DNA of 64,000 nucleotides, taken from NCBI RefSeq assembly GCF_963676685.1, contig NC_092348.1, positions 55,118,001-55,182,000 of the forward strand, written 5' to 3'. The translations under genes were made by a program, and so were the position numbers. The stretch comes from Mytilus edulis. Lineage: Eukaryota. Positions 4,208-45,629 of the stretch are shown here, in pieces (the first letter of the stretch is position 1; the number at the start of each line of letters is the position of its first letter). The notes below the pieces were generated by a model. That model worked only from the letters and a program-made list of their open reading frames with translations, was not told the DNA's origin and did not search any database.

Positions 4208-5082
4208 ACAAGAGTGCACACACTGAAATGTCTCGCCTTCTTTACTAATCATTGATATTATGTTGATAGTCCTAAGTATAAAGCTTTATTACAACTGTCA
4301 CATAAACTTAACATTAACCAAGATAGCTAAACAAAGACCAATGAACCATGAAAATGAGGTCAAGGTCAGATGAACCATGCCAGGCAGACAAGTACAGCTA
4401 ACAAAGCTTCCATACAACAAATATAGTTGACCTATTACTTATAGTTTAAGAAAAATAGACCAAAACACAAAAACTTAACACTGTGCAATGAACCTTGCAA
4501 TTGAGGTCAAATACAGTAGACCTATTGCATAAAGTATGAGAAAAACAGACCAAAACACAAAAACTTAACTATAACCACTGAACCATAAAAATGAGGTCAA
4601 GGTCAGATGACACCTGCCAGTTGGACATGTACACCTTCCAGTTCTTCCATACACCAAATCTACTAGCCCTATTGCTTATAGTATCTGAGATATGGAATTA
4701 ACCACCAAAACTTAACCTTGTTCACTGATCCATGAAATGAGGTCGAGGTCAAGTGAAAACTGTCTGACGTGCATGAGGACCGTGCAAGGTATGCACATAC
4801 CAAATATATTTATCCTATTACTTATAATAAGAGAGAATTCAACATTACAAAAATTCTGAACTTTTTTTTCAAGTGGTCACTGAACCATGAAAATGAGGTC
4901 AAGGACATTGGACATGTGACTGATGGAACTTCGTAACATGAGGCATTTATATACAAAGTATGAAGCATCCAGGTCTTTCACCTTCTAAAATATAAACCTT
5001 TTAAGAAGTTAGCTAACGCCGCCACCGGATCACTATCCCTATGTCGAGCTTTCTGCAACAAAAGTTGCAGGCTCGACAAAAA
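4208..5082 (+). mobile_element. HINE/Helentron-like element, family A
   Basis: Core repeats of about 147 bp (gaaccatgaaaatgaggtcaagg), a short gcc microsatellite and a terminal hairpin gtcgagc..ctgcaac-aaaa-gttgcag-gctcgac followed by an A-run. Confidence 0.8.
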
Positions 5083-39831: not shown

Positions 39832-40253
39832 GTAGCTAACCTGTCCTGTTGTTAGGGAGGCTGGTGCCTAAGTAAAGATTTAGAACAAGTTCTAATCTTT
39901 CCAAAAAAAGCTAACAATATTGCTGCAAGTCTACCTACAAATTTATTCTATATTAACATGATTCATGTCAGAACTGCAGGAAACTTTTAGCTGGATGAAA
40001 GTGACTAAATGTCTTTAGTGTGACGACTGATTTTTTTTTTAAATTATTTAAAAAATATATAAATTGAAACCGTTCATCACACACACTTTTTTTGAATTGT
40101 CAAGAAAATTATTCAAATGTTCAATTTAATTTCATTCAATTTTGTAAGTTTTATTCCAAACATATTTTTTAATCAACATGATTTGGGACCAATAGAATAA
40201 TGTACAAGTCCCATATAAAATGCATACAATTGTTTACATCTACAAATTAAAAA

Positions 40254-40570
40254 AACAAGAGGCTCTCAAGAGCCTGAATCTCTCATCTGTAATTTTTGGC
40301 TTAAATCTTTCATCAATGATTATGTTTTGCTTTTCAATATATACTTAAATGAATGGCTTAAAACTTCCATTGAAATGTTCCTTGTATCTGTCATATTTTC
40401 TCCAAAATCATTTTACCCCTAGATTTTCTATTTTAGCCATCATTGACCATAATGGCTATGTTTCTTGACATACAAGAAAATTAAATACAAAATTTATACA
40501 AGATACTCTGAAACTCATTCAGCCCAAGTTTGGCTAACATTGACTCTGCTGAACATTTTTGCTGTTAACA
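40254..40570 (+). mobile_element. 5' fragment of a family B HINE-like element next to the LINE 3' end
   Basis: The sequence gaggctctcaagagcctgaatc and what follows aligns to 8374-8640. Confidence 0.65.
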
Positions 40571-40847
40571 AATGGTAGTTTAATATTGGTCTTCTTTTAA
40601 CTATAAAACTGATTATATTTCAGCATCATCTTAAGTAATACTGTTTATTTCAATAATTTTGCATTTGTGATCATTCATACCTGTAAGATACCTGTAAGAT
40701 CGTTGTGGGGCTCATATGGAAGGATCCTATCCTTTTTAGCCCACCCTATTTTGGTACACTTTCAAAACTGATACAATCATCAATCCTGCATGATTTGGTG
40801 CAATATTTCACACAATTAAAAAGTTATATAGAAAACTATTTGTGTCC

Positions 40848-43745
40848 TCATAAATTTCTTAACTGATACATGACTGACTCCCAATGACGGTCTATACTAA
40901 TTTTAAAGGCTTCCACAGTTTTTGATGAAATAACTTCAACTGGTAGGTTATTCCAATCATTAATAATTCGTTGTGAGAAATGTCTTAATCGAAAAGAAGT
41001 GTTACATCTAGGTTTTGCTAATTTCCAATTATGCCCACGGGTATTTGTACTGATGACAGTAAAAAATCTTTCGTAAGATATATCTTCGAATCCTTTTAAT
41101 ATTTTGAAAGCTTGTATCATATCACCTCTTCGCCTTCTGTGAGTTAGGGAAGGTAGTTTAAGTACTTTTAATCTGTCTTCATAGCTTAAATGTCGTATAT
41201 CAGGAATTAATTTAGTTGCTCTCATCTGCACTTTTTCTACAGCATTAATATCTTTCTTTAAATGCGGATACCATATTGTATTTCCATATTCCACGTGTGG
41301 TCGTACCAACGCAACGTATAGTCTTAAAAATGTATATTGATCTTTAAAGATAAAAGTTCGGTTAATTAGCCCAAGTATACTATTGGCTTTATTTATTTTA
41401 CTTGATATATGTTGAGAAAATTTAAGATCATTTTGAAAAATAATTCCAAGATCCTTTTCTTGTTCATCTTTAATGATATCAATATTGTTCATGGTATAAA
41501 CATTTTCAGGATTATTTCTTCCATAATGGATTTGTTTACATTTGTTCACATTAAATTTCATGTCCCATAACTTGGACCAATCGTAGAGGGCATCTAGATC
41601 ATTCTGTAAGACATCAGATTTAGAAGTAGGTGCATAAATTTTAGTATCGTCTGCGAAAATTTTTACTATAGACTCCACAACATCTGGTAAATCATTTATG
41701 AATATAATGAAAAGAACAGGTCCAAGTACACTGCCTTGGGGCACTCCACTAATTACATTTTGCCATTCAGATTTTTCCCCTTTCACCGCAACTTGTTGTC
41801 GACGTCCAGTTAAAAAGTCAGTTATCCATTCTAATATAGATCCACGAATACCGTATGAATACAGTTTCTTTAGTAATCTTTTATGTGGCACTTTATCGAA
41901 AGCTTTGGCAAAATCGAGATATAATGTGTCCCAGGATATATTATTATCCATATATAATGACCAGTCTTCCATGACATCAAGTAATTGTAATATACATGAT
42001 CTTCCAGAGCGAAAACCAAACTGTGAGTCTGATAACAAATTATTGGTTATTAAATGATCAATCATTTCCTTCCGTATAACCTTTTCCAAAGTTTTACAAA
42101 CAATTGAAGTTAGACTGACCGGTCTGTAATTTCCCGCATCCAGTTTACTACCTTTATTCTTAAAAAGTGGGGTAACTCTAGCATCTTTCCATTCTTTTGG
42201 AATTTTTCCAGTGTCAATGGACTTTTGAAATATCAAAGTCAAAGGTTTAGAAAATGTATTTGCCATACTCTTTACTATTAACGGATGAATATTATCTGGA
42301 CCCATAGACTTGCTTCCATTTAATAAAAGTAGATATTTTTCAACTGTATCTTGATTGATCCCAAAGTGGTCTAAAGATGATTCAAAATTTCTCTCTTCAA
42401 TATTAGGTATATTATTTGGATTTTCAGCAGTAAATACACTGGTAAAAAAGTCATTTAATACAGTCGCTTTTTCCTTGTCGGAAGTAGTTAAGTTCCCATT
42501 TGGTTTCATGAGGTTTGATACTGCTGATTTTGATTTCACTTTACTTTTGACATATGTCCAAAAATGTTTTGGCTCAGTTTTAGCTTTTGATGCCACCAAC
42601 TTCTCATATTCCTTTTTTGCTTTTCGAACGTTCTCATTTGCCCTGTTTCTAGCAACTTTATAAAAATCAAAATCTACTGCTCGTCTAGTAGCCAAGTATC
42701 TTGACCAGGCCTTTTGTTTGCGTTTTATATTGCTCAGACAATCAAATGTTAGCCATAATGGTTTAGGTTGACAACCCGGTTTAGGATTAGTTTTCGGTAT
42801 ATACGTTTCGACACATTTTTTATATTTTTCATAAAATATTTTCCACATCTTGCTTATGTCTTTATCTTCAAAAGAACTATCCCAATCAAAATTGCTAAAG
42901 TCTTCAGAAAATTTTTCGAAGTCACATTTGGAATATTTATATTTCGATTTACCAGTTTCATATTCATTGAAAGAGTACAAAAAGTCAAATGTAATGGTAG
43001 CATGATCACTAAGTCCCAGTGGAGCATCAATATTAATATTGTCAATATTGCTTTCATCTTTTGTAATAACTAAATCTAGAGTTCTACACATCTGATTTTC
43101 CCTAAATCTTGTAGGTTTATCTATATGTTGATATAGAAAATTGTCGCGTAAAGCTTCAATAAAAGTATGTTCGTAATGGTCCTCAGAGTGAGGCGTAGTC
43201 CAAAAGTTCCAATCAATATCACGCATATTAAAGTCTCCCGTTATTAAAATATTGTTATACAATCGAGCTGCTTCATTCAAAAGTCCAATAATATTTAAAC
43301 ATGAGTTTTGATTTGATGGGCTTCTGTATATTGAGCCTATCAATACAGTCTTATTGTCTTTTACCCAATTACACCATGAGGCATCATCATAAAGCGAATT
43401 CATATATTCATTTGGTGAGACACAGAAATTACTTTTTGCATAAATAATAACTCCCCGTCCTGTATTTTTACTCAGATAAGCTATATAGCCTTCAATGTTA
43501 AATAATGGAGAAATGCAATCTATATCAATATTTGTTTTTGGCAAAACTTCTGTTATAAAAATAAAATCTGGTTTCACGACCTGTATTTGTGCTTCAAGTT
43601 CATCAATTTTATTACGTAATTGATCAGCATTGGTGTACATACACTTTACTTTGTTTACAATTAAAGGGTTAATATTTCGATCTAAATCATCAATATTATT
43701 TTGCCTGTTATTTTCTGTACTTTCGGAAGTACTATCACTTATCAC
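40848..43745 (-). CDS. LINE ORF2p: apurinic-like endonuclease and reverse transcriptase, uninterrupted (reading frame is open up to 44075)
   Basis: APE motifs YTNA..L.NK, FITE, IYRSP, GDFN, SDH. RT motifs NYRPVSLTS, QFGFR, YLDFAKAFDKVPH, GVPQGSVLGP, FADD, KDLG. Confidence 0.97.
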   Translation of the reverse strand: MISDSTSESTENNRQNNIDDLDRNINPLIVNKVKCMYTNADQLRNKIDELEAQIQVVKPDFIFITEVLPKTNIDIDCISPLFNIEGYIAYLSKNTGRGVIIYAKSNFCVSPNEYMNSLYDDASWCNWVKDNKTVLIGSIYRSPSNQNSCLNIIGLLNEAARLYNNILITGDFNMRDIDWNFWTTPHSEDHYEHTFIEALRDNFLYQHIDKPTRFRENQMCRTLDLVITKDESNIDNINIDAPLGLSDHATITFDFLYSFNEYETGKSKYKYSKCDFEKFSEDFSNFDWDSSFEDKDISKMWKIFYEKYKKCVETYIPKTNPKPGCQPKPLWLTFDCLSNIKRKQKAWSRYLATRRAVDFDFYKVARNRANENVRKAKKEYEKLVASKAKTEPKHFWTYVKSKVKSKSAVSNLMKPNGNLTTSDKEKATVLNDFFTSVFTAENPNNIPNIEERNFESSLDHFGINQDTVEKYLLLLNGSKSMGPDNIHPLIVKSMANTFSKPLTLIFQKSIDTGKIPKEWKDARVTPLFKNKGSKLDAGNYRPVSLTSIVCKTLEKVIRKEMIDHLITNNLLSDSQFGFRSGRSCILQLLDVMEDWSLYMDNNISWDTLYLDFAKAFDKVPHKRLLKKLYSYGIRGSILEWITDFLTGRRQQVAVKGEKSEWQNVISGVPQGSVLGPVLFIIFINDLPDVVESIVKIFADDTKIYAPTSKSDVLQNDLDALYDWSKLWDMKFNVNKCKQIHYGRNNPENVYTMNNIDIIKDEQEKDLGIIFQNDLKFSQHISSKINKANSILGLINRTFIFKDQYTFLRLYVALVRPHVEYGNTIWYPHLKKDINAVEKVQMRATKLIPDIRHLSYEDRLKVLKLPSLTHRRRRGDMIQAFKILKGFEDISYERFFTVISTNTRGHNWKLAKPRCNTSFRLRHFSQRIINDWNNLPVEVISSKTVEAFKISIDRHWESVMYQLRNL

Positions 43746-44049
43746 ACTACCATCATTGCTTATATAATCAGATTCACTTGCATTGTCATTTTCTGCATTA
43801 TCAAAGTTATTAAAAAATGCATTATCTTGCGTACTATCTTTAGCACTCTCAGATGTACTGTATCTTATTTCACCACCCTTTTCGCATATATCATCAGATT
43901 CACTTGCTGAATCAACATTTGATGTACTTGCATTGTCATTTTCTGCATTATCAAAGTTATTAAAAAAATTAACTGTAACATTTGAACTGTAACAAAAACC
44001 AACTGGAATTAACGTATTTACATGTTGTTTGATCTTTTCTATAGAAAGT

Positions 44050-44940
44050 CTACGGTCGAAAATTGGCAGTCTGACCTAAACCGCCACTTTCAACACTACT
44101 AGCTGTATTTGTCATACTAGACTGACCAGAAATGTCTTTTCTTTCAATGATTTTCCCCCGGAAAATTACCAAGTTTGCATTGTTTGTTGCTTTTTTCTTC
44201 CTCTCTAGCTCTTTTCTCAGCTCAGTGTTAATATCTCTCTCTTCTTTTGTCAAGTCAGGGGTAATATAACTATTGTTCCATTTATGTACAGTATACCCAT
44301 CACTGTTTTTCCTTCTTAACAATTTAGAGTTCCCTAGAACTTTATGCTTATTTACAACGGAGCCAACAGTTACTTTCATCAGTCTTGGTTTACTCTCATT
44401 TGGTTTACCCAATCTTATAAATGATTTAATTTCAACTTCATCACTCTGAACAGTGTGCAATATATCTTTTAATGAAATTTCATCATCTCTTTTCTTATTA
44501 TCAGTACTACAATCTGGTTCTGGGACATTGTGAATTATTAAGTTACATTTTCTTTCTTCTCTGTCCCTAAACGACTCAAAGGCTCTTTCAACTCTTTGGT
44601 CAATTTTAACATCCATGCTGGATTCAACTACTTTCAATTTAGTATCAAGTTCTTCAAAAAGTACCCTTTGTCTCTCAATGTGTAACCCTAACTCATTTAA
44701 TTTTGGTAATACGCGGACACATCCATCACAGTTAAATGGCAAATTAGGGGTCGACTCGGTTTTCAGTAACTCATATAATTTTGCTGAAACGTGGCTACAC
44801 TCTATGCAGAACCAATATCGGCATATATTACAGTTCATACATTTTTGATTTTTCTTAAATGTTTCTTCACATTGGGCACAAGATTTGTTGTTAATTGAGG
44901 TCGGCATGGTGCCTGTCTTTGGAGTTGCTGTTTTACTCAT
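44050..44940 (-). CDS. LINE ORF1p: PHD-type zinc finger, coiled coil and RRM-like domain (296 aa)
   Basis: Cys pattern CAQC...CNIC...FCIEC...CDGC, followed by RKCNLIIHNVPE, RLGK, PRLMKV and ITPDLTKEER motifs typical of CR1/L2 ORF1. Confidence 0.9.
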   Translation of the reverse strand: MSKTATPKTGTMPTSINNKSCAQCEETFKKNQKCMNCNICRYWFCIECSHVSAKLYELLKTESTPNLPFNCDGCVRVLPKLNELGLHIERQRVLFEELDTKLKVVESSMDVKIDQRVERAFESFRDREERKCNLIIHNVPEPDCSTDNKKRDDEISLKDILHTVQSDEVEIKSFIRLGKPNESKPRLMKVTVGSVVNKHKVLGNSKLLRRKNSDGYTVHKWNNSYITPDLTKEERDINTELRKELERKKKATNNANLVIFRGKIIERKDISGQSSMTNTASSVESGGLGQTANFRP

Positions 44941-45629
44941 TATGTTTTTTTCTGAATGAAATGTTAGTTAAAAAGATATGTCAATGTTGTGTTGAAGCTT
45001 TCATGGAGAAAATGTTAATAGGGACACCAAATTTATGCAGGATTGATTCAGATTTTTAAAAAAAATTAGGGGCACCAAAAAAAAACCTTTTGCTGTCTTC
45101 GCCGGAACCGGAAGTTTATAATATAGAAGAACATTAAACAGGCTATTATTTGAACTTGGAATTATTTTTAATTATGGAATTTGCTTGAAATTATAAACAG
45201 GTACTGTTTATTTTTATCTAGTATGTTTTTAAGGGCCCTACATTATCTGTGCCAGTGGGCTCTTAATCGATGTCATTTGATATAAAGTCGGCTTACTGAA
45301 CATTGGGTTCTAAGTTCAATATCCCTAATGGCACATTAGAAAATATGTTATTTTTAAAAGGATAATCATGTTTTTTTATTATTTATACAGTAGTGCATCT
45401 ACGCGTTCATTTACTGGGATCTGTTCAGAACTGTAAATATTAAATAAAAATTGTACGTAAAGGTCGAAAATATTACTATATATTTGAGATATTAAAGAAA
45501 ATATAGTAACTGTGATTCATATGAAAATGAATCTGTGCACTGTTGACATAGAATTACAAATATAGTATACGTTGACAGTATTATTCATTGAACACAAAGA
45601 ATTAATATGAAAATAAGCATTTAGAATTT

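Follow-up and report, generated by a model that had tools for sequence, protein, structure and literature searches.

The window analysed here is a 64,000-nucleotide stretch of the Mytilus edulis genome (assembly GCF_963676685.1, contig NC_092348.1, positions 55,118,001 to 55,182,000), and it carries on its minus strand a young, full-length long interspersed nuclear element (LINE) of the CR1 type. The 5′ and 3′ untranslated regions (UTRs) of this element contain complementary segments, and pairing of this kind recurs in relatives whose letters differ. The complementarity is real and, across the sequences compared, is conserved by structure rather than by sequence. Retention of pairing under turnover of the letters is what selection on base pairing usually leaves behind, and it is probable from these comparisons that pairing in the sense RNA has been selected. 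Our preferred reading, held with modest confidence because it includes a model of the RNA, joins three things: complementary UTRs, turnover of their letters with pairing kept, and a full-length sense RNA predicted to close into a panhandle, which likely acts as a switch from translation to copying. The exact function as such a switch is proposed by analogy and is the more tentative part.

The two core arms are reverse complements of each other, forming 13 bp, a 2 × 1 internal loop and a further 8 bp, with 4,225 nt between them (Table 1). The initial annotation had described this arrangement (13 + 8 bp with a small internal loop, about 4.2 kb apart) and had placed both arms in the UTRs of the element; the pairing is confirmed, and the copy boundaries bear out the placement. 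Three independent copies match the element from 45114-45116 onward and have unrelated flanks, so the 5′ arm is not host flank; an origin there is ruled out by this shared copy sequence, and the host repeat is separate, at ~45130-45190. The segment 45025-45047 thus lies inside the element. The arms are also family-wide, so neither of the two outcomes that the initial annotation had named as refuting it was obtained; among near-full-length copies, 4 have the 5′ arm. An exact-pattern search of the genome returned 54 matches, 5 of the 5′-arm type and 49 of the 3′-arm type, as against none for the reversed control pattern, and three further copies (L103, L104 and L105) carry both arms. In DNA contigs of four runs the family was near-identical, with no arm variants among the matches listed.

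The alignment score of the two UTRs, 34, was matched by 0 of 1000 dinucleotide shuffles. The duplex energy, for which a shuffle test had been suggested, was −65.6 kcal/mol compared with −45.0 ± 5.4 kcal/mol for shuffled sequences, and was attained in 0 of 300. When 81 sliding segments along the element were compared with its 3′ end, two segments in the 5′ UTR scored 42-43 and the other 79 scored 30 or less.

When an alignment of 26 proteins from the first open reading frame (ORF1) was used to scan metagenomes, three loci were obtained, two of them without one end. The third, L239, is a complete element, 54% identical to the window element in ORF1 and 55% in ORF2; it shares the starting motif and has a comparable tail. 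In L239 a 21-nt complement joins the 5′ UTR (491-511) to the 3′ UTR (4569-4589); this pair is the second-longest among the inverted repeats listed, and the best matched of those listed that reach at least 20 nt. Its letters are unrelated to the arms of the window and share no sequence with them. The build is alike, with a 13-bp helix containing one G-U pair, a small loop and a second helix, and the distance from the ORF2 stop to the 3′ arm is 44 nt, compared with 47 nt in the window. The ends of L239 scored 30, again unmatched in 1000 shuffles, whereas swapping ends between the two elements gave a score of 20, which was reached by 70 of 1000 and 105 of 1000 shuffles. Cofolding gains were −23.4 and −23.2 kcal/mol for the window element and L239 respectively, as against shuffle means of −8.5 and −10.2 kcal/mol (0 of 100 each). 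Viral contigs, and a first scan of genome contigs, yielded nothing.

Sister families in the M. edulis genome, at 30-45% ORF2 identity, show related pairing, for the most part at the very 5′ terminus. In families A, B and C, whose 5′ starts are fixed by 2-5 copies, a CTTCCGG core is held in common. The 3-4 nt preceding this core vary by family and match the family's own 3′ site, which lies 100-120 nt from the 3′ end, within the last ORF2 codons. Families opening with a GCGCATGCGC-like motif have matches of 11-13 bp, and in L125 the match is 22/26. The starts of L124, L125 and L115 are supported because host repeats stop immediately ahead of the arms in L124 and L125, and because further loci begin at the same motif as L124 and L115. 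The initial annotation had called for a covariation check on relatives, and L239 and the sister families supply it: the letters turn over fully and the pairing is kept. Since the sequence turns over while the pairing stays, a selected end-to-end RNA pairing is supported as a prediction; the functions suggested in that annotation, template selection or coupling to translation, are putative.

To compare families, we scored Watson-Crick complementarity between the first 152 nt and the last 200 nt of 21 elements, using own and foreign ends. Own ends had a mean of 30.0 and foreign ends 22.1, a difference reached in 0 of 100,000 permutations; this figure overstates independence, because many 5′ starts were placed at a promoter-like motif after the sequences were known, and because the families are related. 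Eleven elements individually exceeded the 95th percentile of foreign scores. Leaving out close kin (16 elements remaining) gave 32.2 and 22.3, and a same-strand control 23.4 versus 22.1 (p 0.049). Single-copy loci with no recognisable 5′ end were left out (L118, L119, L127, L143, L138 and L183), as were loci with an esterase ORF that had no endonuclease match or no 3′ end in range, which were taken to be other element types. Four probable truncations (L097, L100, L123 and L238) were kept, and scored low. A broader scan of sister loci, 3 kb upstream against 320 nt downstream, was too noisy to use, most matches falling in flank.

The minimum free energy (MFE) fold of the whole 4,440-nt RNA predicts that the core, which was all that the initial annotation had recorded, is part of an interrupted 42-bp helix (Table 1). 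A terminal stem-loop directly adjoins this predicted panhandle and stays intact in the fold; in the folds examined it has the 3′ arm on its upstream side. The L239 stem-loop has the same shape with one pair changed on both sides; the fold z-score of the window stem-loop taken alone is −0.28, which is not significant. In whole-RNA folds the helix stood beside an intact 3′ stem-loop in 5/5 elements, the four besides the window element having been picked as good cases. Searches with Rfam covariance models over 40500-45300 gave 0 matches at E ≤ 1. Within the family, position 40785 is changed from G to A in 5 of the 49 3′ copies (7 rows, which include duplicate loci), and the partner base is changed from C to T in one decayed old 5′ copy, L091; this is a hint of compensation. 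A second copy of the L091-type 5′ UTR was looked for and not found. The 5′ UTR of the window element also contains a short duplicated segment (45065-45085 and 45015-45033) that is absent from L091 and pairs in the fold with 40746, a base that differs between old and young copies. Regarding the strand, the window pairing scores 63 with sense-strand wobble and 47 with antisense wobble, and the tight core helices contain, by a post hoc count, 5 sense-strand G-U pairs and 0 A-C.

Several results weigh against a selected pairing, and against the panhandle proposed from it. Ten of the 21 elements were individually not above background. A test fixed in advance left 1 of 20 loci qualifying, the other 19 being truncated, rearranged, without the motif or not LINEs. 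The score of the qualifying locus, 32, exceeded those with each of 17 foreign 3′ ends, but its 3′ end gave 34 with one foreign 5′ end; when eight of the pre-set loci without the motif were scanned, no clear pairing signal was seen. Seven outside elements were also scored, from LINE contigs of other organisms found in bacterial genome bins. Five of these, at 30-37% identity, were negative for end pairing; of the others, L292 has a perfect 12 bp, although 1 of 23 foreign pairs is equally high, and L352 has 11 bp from a start chosen post hoc. End pairing is not universal among the related LINEs compared. The elements folded were best cases, and long-RNA folding programs tend to join ends. The two changes at the 40785 pair sit on different insertions. 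An unselected tally over the 21-element set gave 6 G-U versus 9 A-C, so a strand asymmetry is not established. RNA reads, with a mean depth mostly of 0-7 on both strands, revealed no start site and no joints, and are too thin to demonstrate a discrete full-length transcript. Because most copies are 5′-truncated, the helix does not ensure complete copying. Finally, bivalve SINEs (short interspersed nuclear elements) are described (PMC11481361) as sharing just 35-61 bp of LINE 3′ ends; this stops short of the 3′ arm, which makes an obligatory role of the arm in recognition by reverse transcriptase (RT) doubtful, and a helix required for RT binding is unlikely.

Four other origins of the complementarity were weighed. 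According to the first, which we regard as unlikely, it is a neutral by-product: reverse transcription at insertion would sometimes copy the 3′ region inverted onto the 5′ end, in the manner of twin-priming or fold-back, with unselected decay thereafter. The extended helix of the window does resemble a decayed inverted duplicate of ~60 nt, and 5′ UTRs turn over rapidly between families. This process would, however, need to have happened anew in 11 or more lineages, each time about equally far from the 3′ end, and to have been fixed in the active master. The matches are moreover short (11-22 bp) with wobble-type changes, they fall on promoter-like motifs or in ORF2 codons, and copies within a family end at about one 5′ base, without variable templated extensions.

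Pairing may instead take place in the cDNA, the 3′ end of the first strand annealing to its own start near the target nick, where it would tether or prime the 5′ junction or the second strand. Most families have a 5′ arm consisting of the first 3-30 nt of the element, and scoring with antisense wobble separates cognate pairs about as well as sense wobble (33.4 versus 33.8). The main 5′ arm is nevertheless internal (+57 to +135) in the window element, L239 and L195, the window pairing loses score on the antisense strand as given above, and the core G-U pairs, again on a post hoc count, would become A-C mismatches in cDNA. We consider this explanation improbable.

Also improbable, and placed after it, is the alternative that a host factor (ETS- or NRF1-like) binds the DNA at inverted sites in the two ends, which are complementary as a side effect; the initial annotation had raised a pair of inverted protein-binding sites. 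Many 5′ termini do open with CTTCCGG or GCGCATGCGC-like motifs, which we take to be such sites, and some 3′ arms (families A and B, L140, L292) contain most of the same motif. The window arms, however, have neither motif, several 3′ arms hold half a site, and that of family C is without the GGAA core. The matches run on into family-specific letters beside the motif, and foreign pairs of the same motif class, present in the control set, still score lower. The protein-site proposal is weakened, since no sequence is common to the arms of the window and L239 and since ends exchanged between the two score no better than chance. A chance match in an AT-rich element is very improbable and largely refuted: a 13-nt exact run arises in 3 of 1000 dinucleotide shuffles of the UTRs and the window holds many other inverted repeats, but the full score is not reached in 1000 shuffles, the pairing recurs independently in the same place in L239, and cognate ends are in excess across families.

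Under the preferred reading, that of a selected sense-RNA panhandle, selection would act on the sense RNA and the role of the helix would be regulatory and in cis. Annealing of the RNA ends could fall to ORF1 protein, a part that Gag plays in Ty1. Ribosome loading and initiation would be expected to be damped by a helix at the cap end or close to it. Where a family has its 3′ arm within the final ORF2 codons, the helix would be opened by a ribosome completing ORF2, and would thus form after translation; together, damped initiation and opening by ribosomes would make the closed form a mark of full-length RNA that is done with translation. The closed form could also keep the 5′ end beside the site where RT loads and target-primed reverse transcription starts, and could favour full-length RNA from the element's own promoter over read-through RNA from truncated copies. 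It is possible, though we would not yet expect it, that CR1-group LINEs as a class cyclise their RNA through a private, co-evolved 5′-3′ zip code in each family, usually the first dozen bases and a site 40-130 nt before the tail. Such a code would switch the RNA from message to template, and would allow RT to distinguish its own full-length transcript from truncated copies and from sister families.

Accounts of LINE cis elements usually name a promoter at the 5′ end and, at the 3′ end, a local stem-loop. Two features of cyclisation elements are complementarity near both ends beyond chance and pairing kept with changed letters; the first was found here, and the second in L239 and in 11 of the 21 elements, with five of the seven outside elements negative. 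In Ty1, CYC5 and CYC3 are short complementary elements near the RNA ends, several kb apart, that act as cis elements for retromobility (PMC7969010). The likeness lies in complementary elements near both ends of a retrotransposon RNA, kilobases apart. In Ty1, however, a tRNA serves as primer inside particles, and strands must be transferred between the long terminal repeats (LTRs); priming of a LINE takes place on target DNA, at the 3′ end, and there is no strand transfer that pairing could help. In the LINEs compared here, moreover, the letters turn over fully between families and the pairing is predicted from sequence. Circularisation of flavivirus RNA is reported to inhibit translation initiation (PMC6765113), which provides a model for the proposed switch, and HIV-1 RNA circularises through gag and U3R (PMC1976439). 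These viruses resemble the present case in long-range end pairing that is kept under divergence and adjoins a terminal hairpin; they differ in that their pairing is experimental, while that of this non-LTR retrotransposon is comparative. A 3′ stem-loop recognised by RT is described for stringent-type LINEs (PMC3747384) and a 3′ UTR pseudoknot for R2Tg (PMC12222951). The window element shares with them a structured 3′ end, in its conserved terminal stem-loop, but the structures described there are local to the 3′ UTR, with no 5′-end pairing in the parts available.

The same element type and host group are treated in a study of bivalve CR1 and CR1-Zenon LINEs (PMC10294476), and the Zenon-derived SIDE Persaeus retains its CR1 partner's ends, 5′ and 3′ alike (PMC6740152). 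UTR complementarity goes unmentioned in the text covered: 'UTR' has 0 matches in the main text of the former and 'complementar' 0 in the latter. No description of LINE end-to-end pairing was found in the literature searched, a scope that mostly excludes subscription papers, Repbase Reports and supplements. End pairing is thus known for LTR retrotransposons, retroviruses and RNA viruses, and for LINE ends is apparently new.

The class of the window element follows from its anatomy. ORF2 matches PF14529, PF03372 and PF00078 above the cut-offs, giving an apurinic/apyrimidinic endonuclease (APE) followed by RT. A DNA transposon with terminal inverted repeats and a DIRS-type element were rejected, as the arms are subterminal (70 and 102 nt in) and only APE-RT is encoded. 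Short tandem repeats at the 3′ end, frequent 5′ truncation and no or short target-site duplications are hallmarks of the CR1 group. The window element has the tandem-repeat tail, its copies are mostly 5′-truncated (as in the 5 to 49 arm matches), and no target-site duplication was obvious when the flanks of three copies were compared by eye. It is of CR1 type, an assignment made from element anatomy rather than from an RT tree with named references; a tree limited to families of its own genome places it within a group of ~40-45% identity, with support open. Four other near-complete copies are 98.9-99.6% identical. Window ORF1 has a sub-threshold IBR match and a weak match to MLL PHD3 (E 0.05); PHD is above cut-off in one sister ORF1 and in one homologue of the window ORF1.

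Table 1. Features of the CR1-type element, in window coordinates
Feature	Position	Strand	Basis or remark
Young, full-length CR1-type LINE, 4,440 nt	40677..45116	-	Ends set by copy comparison
5′ UTR core arm, element +70..+92	45025..45047	-	
3′ UTR core arm, 47 nt past ORF2 stop, 102-123 nt from 3′ end (40677)	40779..40800	-	
Extended 5′ strand of predicted 42-bp panhandle	45024..45070	-	Whole-element MFE fold; UTR cofold
Extended 3′ strand of predicted panhandle	40745..40801	-	Whole-element MFE fold
Predicted 3′-terminal stem-loop, likely RT recognition element	40705..40744	-	Folding; shape comparison
ORF1, 296 aa, N-terminus Cys-rich and PHD-like	44050..44940	-	44 homologues, best 66-67% identity
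ORF2 frame, 1075 aa (stop to stop), APE endonuclease and RT	40848..44075	-	Pfam
5′ terminus, opening with doubled CTTCCGG (which we take to be ETS-site-like); same start in families A/A′ and L239	45102..45116	-	
3′ tail, tandem repeat of an 11-nt unit, ~2 copies, without poly(A)	40677..40700	-	

Over 44050-44075 the last part of ORF1 is overlapped, in the −1 frame, by the ORF2 frame, whose first Met lies 146 codons into it. Phe-X-X-stop is the ending of many ORF1 homologues, and a frameshift site is possible in the overlap. No pairing was found between the ORF1/ORF2 junction and the 3′ end, the score being 24-26. Upstream of the endonuclease, imperfect duplications of 126-150 nt (43695-43967) give rise to an acidic low-complexity stretch; L239 has a comparable but non-duplicated extension there. 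Host repeat sequence lies on both sides of the element (45130-45190 and 40200-40640), and the 5′-flank repeat is high-copy, with 1169 candidates, and frequent in RNA reads.

Among the relatives, L195 combines an 8-bp terminal match with an 18-nt match between its internal 5′ UTR and the last ORF2 codons (internal match at oriented ~2700-2716), resembling the internal arm of the window. Nearly all intact termini among the 5′ ends of ~17 LINE families open with recurring short motifs, presumably ETS-like or NRF1-like with one E-box, and in many of these families a motif near the first ORF is, we assume, YY1-like. Three-ORF families of CR1 type (L108, L112, L137, L109, L134, L292 and L352) have an ORF of 236-267 aa, then a PHD-bearing ORF1 and ORF2; the first ORF has no Pfam match and is presumably esterase-like. 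Animal LINE contigs were present in many bacterial and archaeal genome bins (L292-L369), and two ORF1 homologues (P0020 and P0021) are annotated as symbiont hypothetical proteins. Such contigs and proteins in microbial bins are likely host contamination.

For the question of how LINE RNAs exit translation, enter target-primed reverse transcription and get the 5′ end copied, an end-to-end helix particular to each family is directly testable, by breaking one arm and restoring pairing with new letters, and the window element, which is intact and has near-identical copies, is a suitable test case. End pairing could also serve to verify where CR1 consensus sequences truly begin at the 5′ side, and it suggests a way of designing all-RNA insertion tools based on LINEs. 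Cyclisation across CR1-group LINEs, if it does hold for the class, would give this major clade of animal retrotransposons a cis element that has gone unrecognised.

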